Source of the DNA: an uncultured Candidatus Saccharibacteria bacterium
GTDB taxonomy: Bacteria > Patescibacteriota > Saccharimonadia > Saccharimonadales > JAUPVS01
Direction of reading: 5' to 3'
NCBI GenBank assembly: GCA_964410185.1
Contig: CAYPFM010000001.1
Coordinates: 208,860 to 272,859 of the forward strand
Length of the DNA stretch: 64,000 nt
Shown: positions 8,738 through 52,631 of the stretch, piece after piece
Layout: every line of letters starts with the position of its first letter
Position numbering within the stretch: the stretch's first letter is position 1
The notes under the pieces: generated by a model
Database searches by the model: none
Told to the model about the DNA's origin: nothing
What the model saw: only the letters and a program-made list of their open reading frames with translations
Made by a program: the position numbers and the translations under genes

Positions 8738-9137
8738 GCTCGTCCGCATAACCGAGTATTTCATTAGTGGTGGCGCTTATTTCTGGAGCGGCTACTTTAT
8801 CATCGTATTCTTAACACCGGTAATCGGGTTGTGGTGGGCAAACCTGCTCGGCAATGGAGTCGGCGTGACTATTAATTTTATCCTGGAACGCTATTGGGTG
8901 TTTAAGAATCCCAACAGTAAAAAGCTTACCGAGGTGAGCACCAAGTACGTGATCTACACCGGCTTCAACTTTCTCTTAAATTACGCCATTTTACGTGGTC
9001 TACAAAGCATCGGCGTTCAAGTGGCGATCGGACAATTCATCGCCGCCGGTTTCTTTACCTTCTGGAACTACTTCTGGTATCGCAACTACATATTTAAGGG
9101 TAAAACGCACCACAAGCGAATTCATCATCATGCCTGA
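8706..9137 (+). CDS. GtrA family membrane protein
   Basis: 143 aa with 4 TM helices and a GGAYFWSGY / RYWVF pattern typical of GtrA-like proteins. Confidence 0.65.
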   Translation: MNKKQKPKKSELVRITEYFISGGAYFWSGYFIIVFLTPVIGLWWANLLGNGVGVTINFILERYWVFKNPNSKKLTEVSTKYVIYTGFNFLLNYAILRGLQSIGVQVAIGQFIAAGFFTFWNYFWYRNYIFKGKTHHKRIHHHA

Positions 9138-9609
9138 ACCTGTCAACGACCAACCCGAGTCACTACGTCCAACAAAGAAGCAAAAGGAACTACTGACCTT
9201 TATTGAGGCCTTCATTGCCGAACATGGTTATAGTCCGAGCTACCGCGAGATTATGCGCAGCTGCAACTATACGTCGGTGGCTACGGTTGCTCTGCATGTC
9301 AACAGCCTCATCAAACGCGGGCATCTCAAAAAACGCGATCACGCGGCCCGTTCACTCGAAGTAGTTGAGGCGCCCAAAACGCCGACCCTCGTGACGAACC
9401 AGGTGAAGCCCGGGGATGAAAAATGGCTGGTCGACAAAATCGATCATTATTTTGCCCAGGCAGAGGAGAATAAAGCGCTTGGTGACACCGAGATCGATCA
9501 ATTATACGTGTTAGTTGGTGCCCTCAAGGTGCTTGGTCTCGATGGCGCGGCGCAAAGTTTTATTCCGCGTTTGTCTGAGCTCAAAAAGCGCTATACTAAG
9601 TCGGTATGA
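9130..9609 (+). CDS. LexA-type winged-helix DNA-binding protein lacking the S24 peptidase domain
   Basis: ORF 8995..9609. I use the ATG at 9130, which overlaps the gtrA stop by 8 nt. LTFIEAFIAEHGYSPSYREIMRSCNYTSVATVALHVNSLIKRGHL resembles the LexA N-terminal domain. No Ser-Lys peptidase region follows. Confidence 0.6.
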   Translation: MPEPVNDQPESLRPTKKQKELLTFIEAFIAEHGYSPSYREIMRSCNYTSVATVALHVNSLIKRGHLKKRDHAARSLEVVEAPKTPTLVTNQVKPGDEKWLVDKIDHYFAQAEENKALGDTEIDQLYVLVGALKVLGLDGAAQSFIPRLSELKKRYTKSV

Positions 9610-10406
9610 CGATTCTACAAGCAATCTTTTTGGGCCTCGTTCAGGGCTTCACCGAGTTTATTCCAGTTTCCAGTTCAGGGCACTTAATTTTGGCGCGCCA
9701 TTTTATTAACATGCCCGTCACCGGGTTGACCTTTGATGTCGCCCTAAACATCGGTACTCTTGCTGCTTTGGTAATCTACTTTTACAAAGACATCTGGCTG
9801 CTTACAAAAGCCATCTTTACAAAACAAAAAGAAACAAGATTGGCTTGGATGCTGGTGATCGCTACTGTCCCTGCGGTGATTGCCGGGGTACTGCTAGAAA
9901 AATCGGCCGAAACGGCCTTTCGTTCGCCAAGACTGGTCGCAATTAACCTGTTAATCGTGGCGATTATTATGCTCTTTGCCGAGCGTTACTATCATTTGCA
10001 TGTAAAGAACCCAACCAAGATTAACGACGTCAGTAATAAACAGGCCATCGGTATGGGTATTGCTCAGGCGGCGGCCTTGGTGCCTGGGGTATCGCGTTCC
10101 GGGAGCACTATTTCGGTTGGCTTGTTCTTTGGCATGGATCGGGTGGCAGCGATGCGATTTTCCTTTTTGCTCGGTATCCCGATTATGTTTGGCGGCATTG
10201 CTAAAAAACTACTGGAGCCGGGTTTTGCCAGCGGCTTTCAGCATGAGCAGGCCCAATATATTGCCGGTATCCTCGCTGCCTTTGTGAGCGGCATGATTGC
10301 CATTCGCTTCTTGCTGGGCTATTTGAGCAAACACAGCCTCTCGATCTTCGCCTACTACCGCATTGCTTTGAGCGTGATCGTTCTGTTAGTCCTAGCGCTT
10401 AACTAA
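9606..10406 (+). CDS. uppP: undecaprenyl-diphosphate phosphatase
   Basis: 266 aa with GFTEFIPVSSSGH and PGVSRSGSTI motifs. Confidence 0.9.
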   Translation: MTILQAIFLGLVQGFTEFIPVSSSGHLILARHFINMPVTGLTFDVALNIGTLAALVIYFYKDIWLLTKAIFTKQKETRLAWMLVIATVPAVIAGVLLEKSAETAFRSPRLVAINLLIVAIIMLFAERYYHLHVKNPTKINDVSNKQAIGMGIAQAAALVPGVSRSGSTISVGLFFGMDRVAAMRFSFLLGIPIMFGGIAKKLLEPGFASGFQHEQAQYIAGILAAFVSGMIAIRFLLGYLSKHSLSIFAYYRIALSVIVLLVLALN

Positions 10407-10444
10407 AGCAAAAAATACTACATATAGCGTAAGCGCCGCATGCT

Positions 10445-10611
10445 ACACTGGTTATATTGACAATTAAATTGCCGGAATCAGGTGCGAATCCTGAGCTGTG
10501 CCGCAACTGTAAGCAGATTAATCTGTAAGCCAGACACGGTGTTAAATCTCCCGAGCAGGAGTAAGGCTATTTTTAGCCACCCCCTCGCTCGGTAGTCGAA
10601 CGAGGGTTTTT
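10445..10611 (+). promoter_or_regulatory. cobalamin-riboswitch-like leader ending in an intrinsic terminator
   Basis: GCCGGAAtcaGGTGCGAATCCtgaGCtGtGCCGCAACTGTAA (10471-10512) matches the remembered B12 aptamer core (GGGAA-n3-GGTG-n-GAATCC-n3-GC-G-CCCGC-ACTGT). AAGCCAGACAC at 10527-10537 resembles the B12-box end. The terminator (10582-10611) abuts the ATG at 10613. Confidence 0.5.
10582..10611 (+). terminator. intrinsic terminator (expression platform of the leader)
   Basis: ccctcgctcgg-tagt-cgaacgaggg stem followed by TTTTT. The 5' half (gctcgg, 10587-10592) can instead pair with cccgagc at 10550-10556. Confidence 0.55.
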
Positions 10612-10612
10612 A

Positions 10613-12145
10613 ATGCTTCCAGCCACTGCCGAAATGGTTCACCAGTCTCTAGAACAGCCGCCGATGGCTATCCTGGTGCCAGAGATGTTGGAAGACGAGT
10701 TGGTGCGCCGGCGAGCCGATCGTTTCATCCGCTTCGCGGGGGCAGTGGGGGTGGCCGAGCAAGTCCAAGTTGAAGCGGTCGATCGGGAACACACCCCGGA
10801 GGAGCAAACAACCAGCTTGATGGACTCAATTCACCGCGCTGCTTGGGGCGATCAGATGGCGCGCAAAATGGTGGAAATAAATACCCGAACTGACATGATT
10901 GAGCGCACCATCAAGGCCGGCCATATCATCGCGGTTGATATTTTTGAAGACGATGACGGTAACTTGGTGCAATATGGCCAAAGCATGGAGTCAATCCAGG
11001 CCAACACCCTCCGTTTCGCGGCCGATACTGCGGCCATGCGCGAGCGCGCCGAAGCCGAAACGCATAACACCTTCCGGATTAAACAGTTCCACGAACAGGG
11101 TCTACTCAAGGATTACAACTTTGTGGTAATTTCACGTTTCCCCGATCGCCAGAGCATGTCGATTCAAGAAGCCAAAAAAGCCGGTTTCTTTGTAGACACT
11201 ATGTCGGCCGCCATTCAGGTCACGGGGACTGGCCCACATGGTTTACAGACCGAATCAGCCTTCGTGGCTGGTGTGAGCGGTCCTGATGCTCAGCCGCACG
11301 ACGAGGCCGCTATAATTGCCCTTGGCCAGGCTTTCGAAGTTGATTACTCGGGCAAGACAGCCGCTCAAATTATCGATATGCCTCTGTTGATACATAAAGA
11401 CGCCATGCCAAACGGTGTCTCCGACCTCGTCAAGCTCTATGATCAGTTTGCTGGCGGCACCTTCTTTGGTCAGAATGAGCCAGCTCAAGACTATCAAGCC
11501 TATCGTGAGCAGTGTCGCCAGCGTGAAACTGCCCTGGAGCCAGCCGTCCAAGCGGTTGTCGAGGAACTCATTAACCAAGCTGAACACCTTCATACGCCGC
11601 TTGAGGCAGTCGAAAAGCTAGACGAGCTGTCCGAGCGCGATATGGTAAGGTATAGCGTCAAGTATGATCACTCGATAGACCCACTGGTGTTTGGCGAAGA
11701 GGCGGCAGGCTATATCCGGCAAGCCAGAGCCTACGAACTAGAAGGTGACACGCAAAGTGCCGAGCGAGCTACCGAACGGGCCCAAGAAACGGCCGTCTCA
11801 AGCTCCTGCCCAACCGCGCGCAAAGCGGCTAACGAGGCCAACGAGCAAGAGGAGGTCGAGGTTATTGAATCACCCGAGTCAAAGGCCGGTAAGATCCGTT
11901 GCATCAAGTGCCGAGAGTACGTTAATAAGCGGGAAGTGGTGAAGGCTAAATCCTGGTGTTGTCCAAAGTGTAAGTACGAGGTTGATATATGCAACGGCAA
12001 GGTGCTGAACGAGGCTCAACCTAAACCACAAGCTGAGCCAGAGGCGCATCCCGTAGCAGAAGTGATTTCGTTAGTAGACAAACGCCAACCAGTCGAGTTA
12101 GCTAGCAACTTGCCCAAAGAAGATAGTACAATGAGAGCAGCATAA
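10613..12145 (+). CDS. hypothetical protein with C-terminal CxxC...CxxC zinc ribbon
   Basis: 510-aa ORF. CIKCREY...CCPKCKYEVDIC near the C-terminus. I recognise no other family. Confidence 0.6.
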   Translation: MLPATAEMVHQSLEQPPMAILVPEMLEDELVRRRADRFIRFAGAVGVAEQVQVEAVDREHTPEEQTTSLMDSIHRAAWGDQMARKMVEINTRTDMIERTIKAGHIIAVDIFEDDDGNLVQYGQSMESIQANTLRFAADTAAMRERAEAETHNTFRIKQFHEQGLLKDYNFVVISRFPDRQSMSIQEAKKAGFFVDTMSAAIQVTGTGPHGLQTESAFVAGVSGPDAQPHDEAAIIALGQAFEVDYSGKTAAQIIDMPLLIHKDAMPNGVSDLVKLYDQFAGGTFFGQNEPAQDYQAYREQCRQRETALEPAVQAVVEELINQAEHLHTPLEAVEKLDELSERDMVRYSVKYDHSIDPLVFGEEAAGYIRQARAYELEGDTQSAERATERAQETAVSSSCPTARKAANEANEQEEVEVIESPESKAGKIRCIKCREYVNKREVVKAKSWCCPKCKYEVDICNGKVLNEAQPKPQAEPEAHPVAEVISLVDKRQPVELASNLPKEDSTMRAA

Positions 12146-12153
12146 GCGAAATC

Positions 12154-12705
12154 ATGAAAAAAATCGGCATTTACTCTGGGATATTCGACCCCGTCCACCA
12201 CGGTCATATTTCATTTGCCCAAAAAGCCATGCAAGAGCTGGGACTCGACAAGGTGTATTTTATGGTTGAACCGACTCCCCGACGCAAGACCCAGCAAAGC
12301 GACATTCGGCACCGCCTGAATATGATGTGGCTGGCTTTACGTGATCAGCCTGGGCTGGAGCTGTTACATAGTGACCATCAAACCTTTTCGGTCGCCGAAA
12401 CGCTACCCTGGCTCGAGGCTAAATTCGAAGACGCCAAACTGCACTTCTTGATGGGTTCAGACCGGTTCCTAAAGCTACATACCTGGCCAGGTTTTGAACA
12501 ACTACAATCGAAGGTAAACTTTGTTGTTGGCCAACGGGCCGGTGATGATACCAGTGAAGTCGCTATCGAGCATCAGCCAATTAGGACTGGCTTATCGGAT
12601 CTCGCTTCCTCCGGCGTTCGTAGTCTGCCCACCAATCAGATGGCGACAGTTGTGCCAGACACGGTCGCGCAATACATTCAGGCCGAACAACTCTATACGG
12701 ACTAG
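12154..12705 (+). CDS. nadD: nicotinate/nicotinamide-nucleotide adenylyltransferase
   Basis: GIYSGIFDPVHHGHISFA (cytidylyltransferase HxGH motif), 183 aa. Confidence 0.8.
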   Translation: MKKIGIYSGIFDPVHHGHISFAQKAMQELGLDKVYFMVEPTPRRKTQQSDIRHRLNMMWLALRDQPGLELLHSDHQTFSVAETLPWLEAKFEDAKLHFLMGSDRFLKLHTWPGFEQLQSKVNFVVGQRAGDDTSEVAIEHQPIRTGLSDLASSGVRSLPTNQMATVVPDTVAQYIQAEQLYTD

Positions 12706-39109: not shown

Positions 39110-40717
39110 ATGTACGATGAACAAGAGGTAGACTTAAAGACGCTTAAATATGTCATGTACCTTCGCAAATCCACTGAGGATGAAGGAAGACAGATTAGGT
39201 CTATTGGCGACCAAGAAAAAGATTGTAAAGATTTAGTTAAACGGCTAGGCCTAAATGTCATTGATACAATTAGAGAAGAAAAGTCGGCAAAAAAGCCCGG
39301 TCATCGCCCCGCTTTTCTAGACATGCTCAAACGAATAAGACGCAAAGAGTTTGATGCGATTATTGCTTGGCATCCAGACCGACTATCGCGCAATAGTATT
39401 GAAAGCGGCAAAATATTACACATGCTGGACACGGATGTTATAAAAGACATCCGTTTTGTTTCTCATCAGTTTTCAAATGATGCAAATGGCAAGATGCTTT
39501 TGGGGATGCTATTTGTGTTTAGTAAACATTATTCCGATGACCTTTCTTCTAAAGTTAAGCGAGGCGTAAGAGGCAACCTTCGTGACTATAAATCGGGTGG
39601 CACGCCAAAACATGGCTACATACGCGACAACGAGGGTATATACCGCATAGATGGTAAGAACTTTGAGATTATCCAGCGTGCTTGGCAAATGAGAGCTAAT
39701 GGCGAGAATATTCAAATGATATGCGACTTTATAAATGAGCAAGGTTATCAAAAGTTCTTCAAAAAAGAAGACAAAGGGCATCAGACATTTGTAATGACGG
39801 ATAGCGTACTTAGCAACCTTTTCAAAGACACCTTTTATTATGGTGAGCTTGTGCAATCCGATGAAGTCATAGATTTAGTAAAAGCACCTGTACCTTTTGA
39901 GCCTATGATTGACCGTGACACATATTTCAGGGCGCAAGAGTACGGCAGAACTAACCAACGAACCAGCAAAGGTCGTAAGCCAATATTGCCATTACGCTAT
40001 ATGGTGTATTGCTCGGTTTGCGAGTTTGATAGACCAATGCAGGTTGGTCGTTCAAGAGGACGAGATGGAGTTACTCGCTTATATTACAGATGTCTTAATA
40101 GCAAATGCACCAGAGCGTACGGCAGTAGAAGTATTAGAGGCAAGCTAGTTTTTGACGAGATTGACCGAGTTATTAAAGAAAAACTAGAAAGTCTTCCGCC
40201 GGAGGCATATGACAAATACATTAAGGAAGTAAAAACTTATAGCACAACCGCCAAGACGAAAATCAGAGCCGACTTAACTAGAGCTAAAGCTACGCGAAAT
40301 GGTTACGAGGAAAGAGTTATTAAGTTGTCTACATCACTTGATTTAATTTCTAACAAGACAGCACTCAAGACAATTACAGACCAAATTAGCGAGGCAACTC
40401 AAGAGATGAACAGACTAGACCAAGCTATCAAAAAATATCAGAATGATATAGAGAAGGCTACTTTGCCTAAGATTGACCGCAAAGAGTTCGAAAGCACTAT
40501 TTCTCAACTGGGCGCTAAGCTAAAAGCAGCGGATGTGGTTCAAAAGGACATAATTGCTAGTAATTTGTTTTTGAACCTATATTTTGACCATCAAAAAATG
40601 ACGCACTACTCCTTAAAAGAGCCGTTCGCGTCATTAGTTGAGTTAAATGCAATCCAACTTGGTGGGGGTGGTTGGAATCGAACCAACTACCAAGTGGTTA
40701 TGAGCCGCCTGCTCTAA
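39110..40717 (+). CDS. large serine recombinase/integrase; last ~16 codons are antisense tRNA sequence
   Basis: YLRKSTEDE...DRLSRN resolvase catalytic domain, recombinase domain, zinc ribbon (CSVCEF...YYRCLNSKC) and coiled coil. The ORF crosses the att core at 40660. Confidence 0.85.
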   Translation: MYDEQEVDLKTLKYVMYLRKSTEDEGRQIRSIGDQEKDCKDLVKRLGLNVIDTIREEKSAKKPGHRPAFLDMLKRIRRKEFDAIIAWHPDRLSRNSIESGKILHMLDTDVIKDIRFVSHQFSNDANGKMLLGMLFVFSKHYSDDLSSKVKRGVRGNLRDYKSGGTPKHGYIRDNEGIYRIDGKNFEIIQRAWQMRANGENIQMICDFINEQGYQKFFKKEDKGHQTFVMTDSVLSNLFKDTFYYGELVQSDEVIDLVKAPVPFEPMIDRDTYFRAQEYGRTNQRTSKGRKPILPLRYMVYCSVCEFDRPMQVGRSRGRDGVTRLYYRCLNSKCTRAYGSRSIRGKLVFDEIDRVIKEKLESLPPEAYDKYIKEVKTYSTTAKTKIRADLTRAKATRNGYEERVIKLSTSLDLISNKTALKTITDQISEATQEMNRLDQAIKKYQNDIEKATLPKIDRKEFESTISQLGAKLKAADVVQKDIIASNLFLNLYFDHQKMTHYSLKEPFASLVELNAIQLGGGGWNRTNYQVVMSRLL

Positions 40718-40735
40718 CCGATGAGCTACACCCCC
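40660..40735 (-). tRNA. tRNA with CAU anticodon, most like tRNA-Ile2 (lysidine type); tRNA-Met not excluded
   Basis: GGGGGTGTAGCTCATCGGTTAGAGCAGGCGGCTCATAACCACTTGGTAGTTGGTTCGATTCCAACCACCCCCACCA folds as a cloverleaf of 76 nt with CCA encoded. The anticodon arm and variable region resemble E. coli ileX as I remember it. Confidence 0.8.
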
Positions 40736-47257: not shown

Positions 47258-48808
47258 ATGAATAGTGTTGTATATGTCAGGGTATCAACAGACGAGCAAG
47301 TGCTGGGCACGAGCTTAGATATGCAACAAAAACAGTGTTTAGAGTTTGCAAAGGCGCATGGCTGGAACGTACCGAAGGAAAATGTCTTTCGCGATGAGGG
47401 CGAATCAGCAAAGGCTACCAATCGGCCGAAGCTTCTCGCCATGCTTGAGCATTGTCGCAAGAACAAACGCAAAATTGAAAAGTGTATTGTTTGGAAGTTA
47501 GATAGGTTTGCTCGCAACTCTGACGATCATGTAATGATACGTGCCATACTGCGCAAGAATGGCGTATCACTCGTGTCCGTTACCGAGCCTATTGATGACA
47601 GCCCGACCGGCAAACTTATGGAAACGGTGCTTTCAGGCTTCGCGCAGTTTGATAATGAAGTCAGAACACACCGAACAACGGAAGGAATGAAAAGACGCCT
47701 TGAGCAGGGCGGGTGGCCGCATGACGCACCTATTGGTTATATAAAGGCGCGCACTCGTGAGGGCGTAACAACCATCGCTCCGCACTCAGAAATGGCACCA
47801 AAGCTCACACTCTTTTTAGAAACATTTTCAACCGGCCAATACACCGTCAGACAAGCAACTGACCTCGCCTATGAATTAGGTATACGAAACGGTAAAGGTG
47901 AAAAGCGAACATGGCAAACAATTGAAAACACTATCAAGAACCCGATTTACGCTGGGTACATTCAGTCTAAGTACACAGACGGCAATCGCTACGTTGGCTT
48001 GCACGAGGCGTTGATTAGCGAAGCAACCTTTAACAAGAACCAGAGTATCCTTGTTGGTAAACAAAAAGTGTTTACCCGCAGTGACGAGGGTGACTATCCA
48101 TTACGGCGAGACTTTTTACGCTGCATACACTGCGGTAAATTCGTAACTGCGAGTGCGCCAAAAGGGGCAAGCGGTATTAAGTACCCACGGTATAGCTGTA
48201 TTAATTGCAAGACATCGGTAATTGGTAAAAAGGTCAGCAAATCAAGCGAAGAGATTCATAAAGAGTTCCGTGAGGTATTGTCACGAATCCGCTACAAGGA
48301 AAACAGGCTCAAAGTTTTCAAACGTATTGTGTTGCAGCGTTGGTGCGATGAGTATGATGACGCGCTCAAGGCAGCCTATCAAGTTAATAAAGAGCTTGAA
48401 ACCTTGCAGACCGAACGCGCCAAGGTTAATCGCAAGTTCGCCCGCGATGAGTATACGTTTACCGAGAAGCAGGAATTAATCAGAGACATTGACGCCGAAA
48501 TCGTAGACTACATGAAGAAAAAAGTTGAAGCCGACGAGTATGCCAATCAAAAGGAGCAAATCATTGATAATGCCATGCTGTTCATGAACGAGCCATCAGA
48601 GTTCTGGAACAGAGCACCATTACAGATACAAAAGGCAGTACAGCATACACTTTTCCCGCATGGTTTGGCCTATGACTTTGAAAATGGCTTTGGAACTATT
48701 GAGCTGAACGAGTCGTATCTGTTGCTACAAAAAATAGCGCCCGAAGACGCTAATGGTTCTATTGTGGTAGCGGCGACAAGATTTGAACTTGTGACCCCAG
48801 GCTTATGA
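47258..48808 (+). CDS. large serine recombinase/integrase; last ~11 codons are antisense tRNA sequence
   Basis: VYVRVSTDEQ...DRFARN catalytic domain, recombinase domain, zinc ribbon (CIHCGK...YSCINC) and coiled coil. The ORF crosses the att core at 48765. Confidence 0.85.
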   Translation: MNSVVYVRVSTDEQVLGTSLDMQQKQCLEFAKAHGWNVPKENVFRDEGESAKATNRPKLLAMLEHCRKNKRKIEKCIVWKLDRFARNSDDHVMIRAILRKNGVSLVSVTEPIDDSPTGKLMETVLSGFAQFDNEVRTHRTTEGMKRRLEQGGWPHDAPIGYIKARTREGVTTIAPHSEMAPKLTLFLETFSTGQYTVRQATDLAYELGIRNGKGEKRTWQTIENTIKNPIYAGYIQSKYTDGNRYVGLHEALISEATFNKNQSILVGKQKVFTRSDEGDYPLRRDFLRCIHCGKFVTASAPKGASGIKYPRYSCINCKTSVIGKKVSKSSEEIHKEFREVLSRIRYKENRLKVFKRIVLQRWCDEYDDALKAAYQVNKELETLQTERAKVNRKFARDEYTFTEKQELIRDIDAEIVDYMKKKVEADEYANQKEQIIDNAMLFMNEPSEFWNRAPLQIQKAVQHTLFPHGLAYDFENGFGTIELNESYLLLQKIAPEDANGSIVVAATRFELVTPGL

Positions 48809-48841
48809 GTCCTGTGCTCTAACCAACTGAGCTACGCCGCC
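48765..48841 (-). tRNA. elongator tRNA-Met (CAU)
   Basis: GGCGGCGTAGCTCAGTTGGTTAGAGCACAGGACTCATAAGCCTGGGGTCACAAGTTCAAATCTTGTCGCCGCTACCA, 77 nt with CCA encoded. The D arm and variable region are near-identical to E. coli elongator tRNA-Met as I remember it. Confidence 0.8.
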
Positions 48842-49655: not shown

Positions 49656-49730
49656 CGCGGGGTGGAGCAGTGGCAGCTCGCGTGGCTCATAACCACGAGG
49701 TCGCAGGTTCGAGTCCTGCCCCCGCTACCA
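49656..49730 (+). tRNA. initiator tRNA-fMet (CAU)
   Basis: CGCGGGGTGGAGCAGTGGCAGCTCGCGTGGCTCATAACCACGAGGTCGCAGGTTCGAGTCCTGCCCCCGCTACCA. The 1:72 pair is unpaired (C/U). The first 15 nt are identical to E. coli tRNA-fMet as I remember it. CCA encoded. Confidence 0.85.
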
Positions 49731-52085: not shown

Positions 52086-52631
52086 ATGGCCAAAAAAACA
52101 GATCGAAAAACAATTGATATGGTGTTTGTATTGCTCGGCGCCGCGATGACCTTAACACTGGTTGTGGTGGGTGGTATTTCTATGTACGCCTACAACTTTG
52201 CTACCACGAGCGTCCGCACCGAGCTCGTAGCCCAAAAGATATACTTCCCTCCAAAGGGTAGCCCAGCCCTTGATCCAAAGGAATTTCCTGACCTACAACA
52301 ATACGCTGGCCAGCAAGTTGACGATGGTATCAAGGCCAAGGCGTATGCCAATGGCTTTATTGGTCGTCACCTCGAAAAAGTAGCTGGTGGCAAAACCTAC
52401 TCCGAAGTTAGTACCGAGGCTATGAAAGACCCAACCAACCCTAAGTTGGCTGCTCAAAAGGCCACACTATTTCAGGGTGAAACCTTGCGCGGTATTCTAC
52501 TCGGTGACGGCTACGCCTACTGGACCTTTGGCCTAATCGCCTTCTACGCTGCTATCGCTGCCTTTATCGGTGCCGCTGTTATGGCTGTCCTAGTACTGCT
52601 CGGCTTCCGCCACATGTCTAAGCAAAAGTAG
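52086..52631 (+). CDS. hypothetical membrane protein (TM helix at each end)
   Basis: 181-aa ORF. Confidence 0.5.
   Translation: MAKKTDRKTIDMVFVLLGAAMTLTLVVVGGISMYAYNFATTSVRTELVAQKIYFPPKGSPALDPKEFPDLQQYAGQQVDDGIKAKAYANGFIGRHLEKVAGGKTYSEVSTEAMKDPTNPKLAAQKATLFQGETLRGILLGDGYAYWTFGLIAFYAAIAAFIGAAVMAVLVLLGFRHMSKQK

Follow-up and report, generated by a model that had tools for sequence, protein, structure and literature searches.

A compact cobalamin riboswitch precedes a Saccharibacterial gene with a possible role in B12 handling

Upstream of the gene for an uncharacterised 510-aa protein, here called X, a stretch of Candidatus Saccharibacteria DNA (contig CAYPFM010000001.1; 64 kb analysed in full and referred to below as the window) carries a leader at 10460-10612 that we regard, with very little doubt, as a genuine compact cobalamin riboswitch. 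The RNA is a lineage-specific addition to a known riboswitch class, and X together with a set of more divergent X-like proteins probably forms a superfamily that appears undescribed in the literature searched. The overall explanation towards which we lean is that a compact OFF riboswitch governs a protein of a Patescibacterial superfamily that acts in cobalamin salvage or handling for NrdJ, the class II ribonucleotide reductase (RNR) that depends on adenosylcobalamin (AdoCbl). A literature link of Saccharibacteria or the candidate phyla radiation (CPR) to cobalamin riboswitches, or of Saccharibacteria to NrdJ, was not found in a search of incomplete coverage, and such absence is no proof.

A first-pass annotation of this DNA, made from the sequence letters, had recognised a cobalamin aptamer core from a set of conserved strings, every one of which is present in the sequence where it was placed. 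It had proposed a covariance-model search, and in an Rfam cmscan of the whole window the leader indeed matched RF00174 (Cobalamin) above threshold, at 10474-10537 on the plus strand, scoring 34.7 bits (gathering score 31.5; E=4e-5). Permissive cmscan settings returned the identical match, which is the sole riboswitch among the Rfam matches of the window, the others being three tRNAs. This riboswitch match is local and extends over model positions 47-167 (of 189), leaving P1 and P2 unmatched, and a 59-position stretch of the model that corresponds to the P6 extension is reduced to 3 nt, with a 5-bp hairpin in its place. The suggestion that this is one of the shorter variants, with no long peripheral extension, is therefore upheld. 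Because neither a P1/P2 match nor a P6 extension is present, we assign the aptamer to the class-II type and not to class I. The conserved B12 box (J6/3) and the GGAA and GGUG..AAUCC core strings are all in place, the box having a one-base deletion in the cmscan alignment (AGCCA-GACAC against the consensus AGCCAGGAGAC; the family variant is AAGUCCGAUAC).

The aptamer core spans 10471-10540 on the plus strand, as do all leader elements described below, and scores 93.8 bits with R1, a covariance model that we built from orthologous leaders. Its 5' part, GCCGGAATCAGGTGCGAATCCTGAGCTGTGCCGCAACTGTAA, occupies 10471-10512. P3 pairs 10471-10474 with 10537-10540 and is followed by J3/4 (GAA), which lies between P3 and P4 (10478-10482 with 10490-10494). 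P5 (10497-10498 with 10504-10505), invariant among the leaders, encloses L5 (UGCCG, 10499-10503). The base of P6 pairs 10507-10509 with 10531-10533, the 5-bp P6 hairpin covers 10513-10526 and the B12 box in J6/3, AAGCCAGACAC, extends from 10527 to 10537. A search for a conserved P1 helix around AACAA, a conserved stretch on the 5' side of P3, gave no consistent pairing.

To follow the leader across the lineage, we assembled 20 genome loci and five metagenome loci encoding homologues of X, and R1 was built from 18 of the orthologous leaders. The same leader could be read in the upstream DNA of every locus with an intact 5' flank. R1 found exactly one copy per locus, directly upstream of the gene, in 25/25 loci (49-114 bits), and no further copies in the ~300 kb searched on both strands. 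When the leaders were aligned with MAFFT, standard pairs occupied 98.3% of the pair cells, compared with 29-49% when the 3' partners were slid by 1-3 columns. Compensatory changes were observed in nine pairs, located in P3, P4, the P6 base and a downstream hairpin, P13, while P5 never varies. The leader that was to be sought upstream of homologues is thus present at all 25 loci, complete with compensatory changes, and conservation, the R1 results and covariation together rule out a chance match. Matches to the cobalamin clan reached the Rfam gathering score in five of the 20 genome loci, all just upstream of the gene and on the same strand; four of these leaders match RF00174 and one matches RF01689 (AdoCbl-II), at threshold. 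Since most copies score below the Rfam threshold, the RNAs of this lineage may go unannotated. Some orthologues have a P6 hairpin enlarged by insertions of between tens of nt and ~170 nt in an otherwise unchanged aptamer (L010 2622-2873, L015 2732-2916, L019 2690-2872 and L011 2747-2885), and R1 splits two of the leaders with P6 insertions into two matches.

To learn which other genes stand behind this RNA, we searched metagenome contigs for the invariant core CTGTGCCGCAACNGT. This returned 120 stretches, within which R1 confirmed 55 riboswitches. The genes behind the same core include DUF4430 proteins (three times), a DUF6580/ECF S-component protein, a PduO-type adenosyltransferase, a BtuF-like periplasmic binding protein and NrdD, the class III RNR (L090). 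These downstream genes are typical of a cobalamin regulon and therefore support the ligand assignment; by this indirect route, the window RNA may be expected to bind cobalamin. It is hardly credible that the leader is instead no cobalamin sensor at all, but a chance Rfam match or a variant aptamer with another ligand. A score just 3 bits over threshold, the unmatched P1 and P2, the one-base deletion in the B12 box and the 15/20 orthologous leaders under the gathering score are what such a view would draw on; it has to contend with a leader kept in 25/25 loci with compensatory changes in four helices, with the orthologues that match the AdoCbl-II model (one) and RF00174 (four) at threshold, and with the control of PduO, DUF4430, the BtuF-like protein and NrdD by the same core. 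The same riboswitch type also stands before other unannotated proteins, namely 240-aa and 245-aa helical proteins and a 290-aa protein (L113 1106-1985; L140 120-1060; L034, minus strand, downstream of 6860), in which no Pfam match was found.

We then considered how the aptamer is coupled to expression of X. The P13 hairpin (CUCC-CGAGCA-GGAG, 10548-10561) has a covarying stem (CUCC/GGAG, CUCU/AGAG, CUUC/GAAG), and its loop, L13, is kept in 22/23 loci with the pairing bases invariant, four loci having small variants (e.g. CGUGCA or an extended loop). RNAfold predicts a small hairpin at 10565-10578 and an intrinsic terminator, CCCTCG...CGAGGG+TTTTT, at 10582-10611, in which 10582-10587 pairs with 10601-10606 and the U5 tract covers 10607-10611. 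The terminator ends one base before the ATG at 10613, and a Shine-Dalgarno sequence, GAGGG (10602-10606), lies within its 3' arm, 6 nt before the AUG. This terminator/Shine-Dalgarno arrangement, GAGGGUAUUUUUAUG, is common to most orthologues; a simple terminator scan overlooked it, the scan having a loop limit of 8 nt and the actual loop being longer. One base of the P13 stem and five of its loop make up the sequence CCGAGC (10551-10556), which complements GCUCGG (10587-10592) within the 5' arm of the terminator. When this alternative pairing was enforced, the fold reached -23.3 kcal/mol, compared with -25.1 kcal/mol for P13 plus terminator, and the anti-terminator form is the unconstrained minimum-energy fold in eight orthologous leaders. 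The first-pass annotation had described both a terminator at 10582-10611 abutting the ATG and an alternative pairing of 10550-10556 with its 5' arm; the former is confirmed to the base, and the near-equal energies and the eight orthologues speak for the latter.

L5 (UGCCG, 10499-10503) and L13 (CG(A)GCA, 10552-10557) could form five pairs with A10554 bulged, and in cobalamin riboswitches an L5-L13 contact is the ligand-dependent regulatory switch (PMC6158498). We propose that, with cobalamin bound, L5 would kiss L13 and lock P13. The terminator would then form, so that transcription is stopped and the Shine-Dalgarno sequence buried. Without cobalamin, the P13 5' strand and loop would pair with the terminator 5' arm (CCGAGC/GCUCGG) to give an anti-terminator, allowing gene X to be transcribed and translated, i.e. 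made only at low B12. Because a ligand-stabilised P13 should let the terminator form (OFF) and a free P13 should anti-terminate (ON), the architecture argues that the riboswitch works as an OFF switch, which we consider highly probable. At L016 there is no terminator and the P13 3' arm (AGAGGA) is itself the ribosome-binding site, an arrangement that would give the same OFF logic by a purely translational route. Two observations weigh against the kissing-loop model. First, the L5-L13 bases are invariant among the leaders, so that covariation cannot test the contact. Second, P13 is replaced at L023 (6952-6978) by an unrelated hairpin, GUCUCA-CCAAACA-UGAGAC, with no obvious terminator, and the model does not account for this locus, which is without the L13 sequence.

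Class-II cobalamin riboswitches (env8 Cbl-IIa; RF01689, AdoCbl-II; RF00174; clan CL00101) share with the window leader the P3-P6 four-way junction core, the GGAA J3/4, the GGUG...AAUCC P4/L4, the B12 box in J6/3 and the lack of a large P6 extension. OFF logic and the L5-L13 loop-loop contact that acts as the switch (PMC6158498) are probably shared as well, the contact being predicted here from complementarity. The window leader differs in having no recognisable P1 or J1/3 and in an L5/P5 sequence, CUGUGCCGCAAC, that is invariant and lineage-specific; moreover, P6 tolerates insertions in this lineage, from 4 nt to ~170 nt, and most copies fall below the Rfam threshold. The expression platform also differs, since in the window it consists of P13 and, apart from it, a terminator in which the ribosome-binding site is concealed too, whereas in env8 the ribosome-binding site is located inside P13.

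Gene X (10613-12145, plus strand) encodes the 510-aa protein. A search of a 5.8-billion-sequence set identified 237 homologues, and an exhaustive phmmer search against 1.8 billion representatives gave 401 clusters at 50% identity; they are without exception unnamed proteins of 400-580 aa from metagenome-assembled genomes of Saccharibacteria/Saccharimonadales. The phmmer search recovered the Saccharibacterial family alone and brought up no named distant relative. Pfam, NCBIfam and PADLOC, and the PDB searched by single sequence and by profile, gave no match beyond weak zinc-ribbon similarity, in agreement with the earlier remark that the open reading frame has no motif linking it to B12 and only a C-terminal ribbon as a recognisable feature. 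Structure prediction, which had also been suggested, gave a confident AlphaFold2 model (pLDDT 88.7, pTM 0.79; 120-sequence alignment) with no structural relative: Foldseek found none at E<0.1 in the PDB and none below 0.08 in BFVD. The weak top Foldseek matches, to PAS/LOV/GAF-like domains and the ligand-binding domains of IclR-type TtgV, had probabilities of at most 0.35 and were discarded.

The core domain of X is predicted to consist mostly of helices with few short strands. The C-terminal zinc ribbon, C430-x2-C433 ... C453-x2-C456, is carried on strands at 427-466 with a pLDDT of 90-95 and has weak profile matches to eL43 and the Cas12f TNB ribbon; at least 90% of the family retain C430, C433 and C453. 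The residues invariant throughout the family include E97, K101, Q120, R145, E149, N152, S174, D230, R304 and C399 (in SSSCP), and a flexible linker connects the C399 region to the ribbon. Since no hydrophobic segment was found in X, the protein is cytoplasmic. With respect to the termini, 50/120 family members begin with M-A-x-A-A-E (a loose pattern), the last ~35 residues are predicted to be disordered, and a C-terminal -AA, resembling an ssrA-like degradation signal, occurs in 35/120 members (a final A in 52/120).

The regulon scan also revealed probable relatives of X. The largest group behind the riboswitch, ~20/47 assessable matches, comprises unannotated cytoplasmic proteins of 317-554 aa with the layout of X: a strand that ends in S-P-P-G or a similar sequence, a Cys after small residues (TGC, GGC, GSC or SSSC), a linker rich in Gly and Ser and, at the end, a zinc ribbon. 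No Pfam match was obtained for ten proteins of this layout that were scanned. L046, L116 and L129 are plain members of the X family; the membership of several others was assigned by motif inspection and a 28-sequence alignment, which is weaker than a match to a hidden Markov model (HMM). The X HMM fails to recognise the proteins of L033, L054 and L136, even though their genes stand exactly where X does in Saccharibacteria, behind uppP or a LexA-like gene and the riboswitch and ahead of a nadD-like gene; this indicates that the family diverges very fast. A phmmer match (E=1e-6) links the L033 protein to the X-like protein at L064, and the X-like family of L078 has 25 homologues labelled 'Patescibacteria group bacterium'. 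An hhalign comparison of X with the L078 X-like family gave a probability of 85% and E=6e-6, but the confident columns were those of the zinc ribbon only. Under relaxed settings the alignment was colinear and superposed the invariant ER, RxxxE, S, P and C of X and X-like proteins, whose AlphaFold2 models show the same order of helices and strands. The 28-sequence alignment keeps E97, R98, R145, E149, P257, C399 and the four ribbon cysteines. On the strength of colinear motifs, synteny and secondary-structure order outside the ribbon, homology of X and X-like proteins is probable, if not formally proven. The fast-evolving superfamily, along with the promoter and operator-like box described below, adds to what the first-pass annotation had noted.

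In other Patescibacteria the X-like genes have informative neighbours. L145 and a second locus carry NrdR, class II RNR, (NUDIX, DUF4430, DUF6580), PduO, riboswitch and X-like, and the order NrdR, NrdJ, (DUF4430, DUF6580), PduO, riboswitch, X-like is found in 4/4 annotated loci, two of which were reached from NrdJ alone. The two contigs entered via NrdJ, each of ~1 Mb, have the same cluster with the riboswitch in the gap between pduO and the X-like gene, and the gene after the riboswitch is X-like by HMM (E=1e-122 and 2e-83). The RNR of the cluster has the Ribonuc_red_lgN, Ribonuc_red_lgC and TSCPD domains, and NCBI names its relatives adenosylcobalamin-dependent. By tblastn, PduO and/or NrdJ were located beside riboswitch-controlled X-like genes in several more contigs. 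These fixed clusters tie the X-like proteins to the AdoCbl-dependent RNR and to the provision of its cofactor. Furthermore, non-Saccharibacterial Patescibacteria have two cobalamin riboswitches within ~1-2 kb, one before the uptake/pduO genes and one before the X-like gene (L145 6920-7017 and 7829-7970; L148 9565-9646 and 11297-11386; L114 271-366 and 1470-1560; L130 3126-3224 and 4685-4799), and it follows that each unit has a switch of its own. Among the class II RNRs of Patescibacteria, some (P0385 and P0392, relatives of the L145 NrdJ) are ~1190 aa long and contain intein/LAGLIDADG domains (PF14528, PF14890). In all four annotated loci the X-like gene is followed by a small unannotated gene and a ~790-aa DUF8128/DUF87 (HerA/FtsK/TrwB-like) ATPase (L145 9581-12435; L148 12994-15908; L149 11615-14393); this adjacency may be mere synteny or may reflect one functional unit.

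What, then, might X do? From this gene context, we tentatively propose that X captures, processes or delivers cobalamin for PduO and NrdJ. Such a handling role is favoured because every immediate neighbour under the same control functions in B12 uptake or activation. X could, for example, capture or process incoming corrinoid by means of the invariant Cys on its flexible arm, before adenosylation by PduO. The proposal of a new cobalamin-related function in the first-pass annotation is thereby strengthened, since probable relatives of X follow pduO in nrdR-nrdJ clusters, and is not proven. Thiolate-using proteins for the trafficking and processing of cobalamin are familiar from eukaryotes (CblC/CblD) and bacteria (BtuM). 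X resembles these in its proposed role only, i.e. the handling of cobalamin before a PduO/MMAB-type transferase, with the invariant Cys as a possible cobalt ligand or nucleophile; it differs in having no sequence or fold similarity to them, the role being read from gene context alone. A number of results weigh against a handling role. No corrinoid-binding site is identifiable in the sequence of X, and none of nrdJ, nrdR, pduO, nrdD, DUF4430, DUF6580 or btuF was found in the 64-kb window. In addition, OFF regulation by B12 and the position in nrd clusters fit a B12-sparing bypass equally well. A protein search with NrdJ returned Microgenomates-type Patescibacteria only.

Such a bypass would mean that the riboswitch is real and that X supplies or spares deoxynucleotides when NrdJ is starved of its cofactor, possibly by degrading imported or damaged DNA or by another form of deoxynucleotide salvage, the zinc ribbon perhaps binding nucleic acid. 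OFF switches commonly control B12-independent substitutes, and the same riboswitch type does precede NrdD in L090. The location of X-like genes within nrdR-nrdJ clusters and the HerA/FtsK-like ATPase kept two genes downstream of them are compatible with this idea, and conserved Glu/Arg pairs with a C-terminal zinc ribbon would suit a nucleic-acid enzyme. X nevertheless shows no likeness, in family or in fold, to RNRs, kinases or nucleases, and its neighbours, both the immediate ones and those under a separate riboswitch, serve B12 uptake and adenosylation rather than salvage. A search of Pfam, NCBIfam, the PDB and Foldseek found neither an RNR catalytic barrel nor an RNR family signature in X; as nothing in X resembles the RNR fold, an RNR-like enzyme is very unlikely. 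The class II RNRs themselves have a C-terminal cysteine-rich zinc finger (PMC5704485). X is similar in its C-terminal CxxC...CxxC after a flexible tail with a conserved Cys, and X-like genes lie in the NrdJ neighbourhood; X is, however, a separate protein with its own 400-aa domain and has one invariant extra Cys, not a redox pair; the likeness is one of layout.

The promoter region of X provides a further link to the nrd genes. A putative extended -10 element, TGCTACACT (family consensus TGnTAnACT), is located at 10441-10449 on the plus strand, its position and sequence kept across the leaders; a simple promoter scan overlooked this promoter because of its extended -10 type. Near the -35 position lies a 16-bp, partly palindromic box, ATACTACATATAGCGT (10415-10430, plus strand), that resembles a single NrdR box. 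In its family form, ATACTAyATnTAGCGT, the box overlaps the -35 region and is found ~57-66 nt upstream of P3 in L001-L024, at a fixed distance to the aptamer. An NrdR box measures 16 bp; C4, A6, A8, T9, T11 and G13 are highly conserved in it, and between C4 and G13 the AT content is 63% or more (PMC13584703). The window box has 6/6 of these key positions and 88% AT, and 6/6 are also present in 17/23 loci. It is the only site in the window with at least 13/16 consensus matches; a 12/16 match at 52110 falls within an open reading frame and is probably due to chance. A canonical second NrdR box, with a linker of 15-16 bp, was found as a 5/6 match in L010 and L013 only, the best second box of the window having 3-4/6. 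A TAGCG half-site occurs again ~32 bp upstream in several loci.

That the Saccharibacterial box meets all six key NrdR positions is a point for a bypass, and that the two-box architecture is missing in most loci is a point against it. Taking all of this evidence together, we judge a B12-sparing bypass to be rather unlikely. There is a partial parallel in Streptomyces, where Borovok and colleagues reportedly described in 2006 a class Ia RNR operon, nrdABS, under the control of a B12 riboswitch and NrdR. The two cases are alike in combining a B12 OFF riboswitch with an NrdR-type promoter box in an organism group relying on class II (AdoCbl) RNR. They differ in that gene X encodes a protein of no known fold that is not an RNR, in that mostly one good box is present here and not the canonical pair 15-16 bp apart, and in that nrdR and nrdJ are not in the window.

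Upstream of the riboswitch, uppP/BacA (9606-10406) is preceded by a gene (8995-9609, plus strand) for a protein with a LexA-type winged-helix DNA-binding domain only (Pfam LexA_DNA_bind, E=7e-15); TIGR00498 covers its N-terminal half only, and the S24 peptidase domain was not found in it. A LexA-like gene with a product of 150-204 aa lies upstream of the switch in 10/10 Saccharibacterial loci whose neighbours were read (orthologues at L022 6326-6781; L023 5614-6111; L024 6227-6721; L146 7351-7809; L147 8629-9096), and its protein may be a candidate binder of the 10415-10430 box. The gene that follows X, which the first-pass annotation had called nadD, encodes a NadD-like adenylyltransferase (12154-12705, plus strand; TIGR00482 109.5 bits against a cut-off of 112.45; NF005519 E=1e-33). 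It starts 8 nt after X and is on that account probably co-transcribed with it, and a nadD-like gene follows X in 10/10 of the Saccharibacterial loci whose neighbours were read. The Saccharibacterial neighbours (LexA-like gene, X, nadD-like gene) differ from those of the other Patescibacteria but are equally fixed. The three tRNA genes of the window lie at 40663-40735 (minus strand), 48768-48841 (minus strand) and 49656-49727 (plus strand).

The LexA-like neighbour bears on another explanation, in which X acts as an effector of starvation or of a checkpoint without performing chemistry on either B12 or nucleotides; such an effector might be a brake on growth or replication made on B12 exhaustion or DNA damage under the joint control of the riboswitch and the LexA-like repressor. 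We consider this improbable. The synteny of the LexA-domain gene with X and the palindrome-like operator over the -35 region are in line with it, as are the unusually fast evolution, typical of regulators and binding proteins, and the -AA ending in 35/120 members, which is like a degradation tag. An invariant polar set (E, R, R, E, C) maintained over very deep divergence suggests an active site instead, and a checkpoint role leaves unexplained the fixed post-pduO position in non-Saccharibacterial lineages, which have no LexA-like neighbour. The most radical possibility, that X and X-like proteins are novel-fold enzymes that bypass the AdoCbl-dependent RNR by a previously unknown deoxynucleotide route and so enable Patescibacteria to live through a lack of B12, seems to us very improbable. 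The less radical handling role would, if true, amount to a bacterial protein of novel fold that processes or chaperones cobalamin on its way to PduO and NrdJ.

As X has no annotated relative or known fold, the riboswitch is the only present handle on its function. Inducible expression tools are being sought for this phylum (PMC11665869), and the window RNA is a compact natural B12 switch from that very group. The protein family may be of wider significance. Patescibacteria have tiny genomes, do not synthesise B12 and apparently depend on an AdoCbl-requiring RNR for their DNA precursors. A family that is always behind a B12 switch, and in many lineages beside nrdJ and pduO, is a strong candidate for a missing step, and may show how Patescibacteria acquire, process or do without B12.

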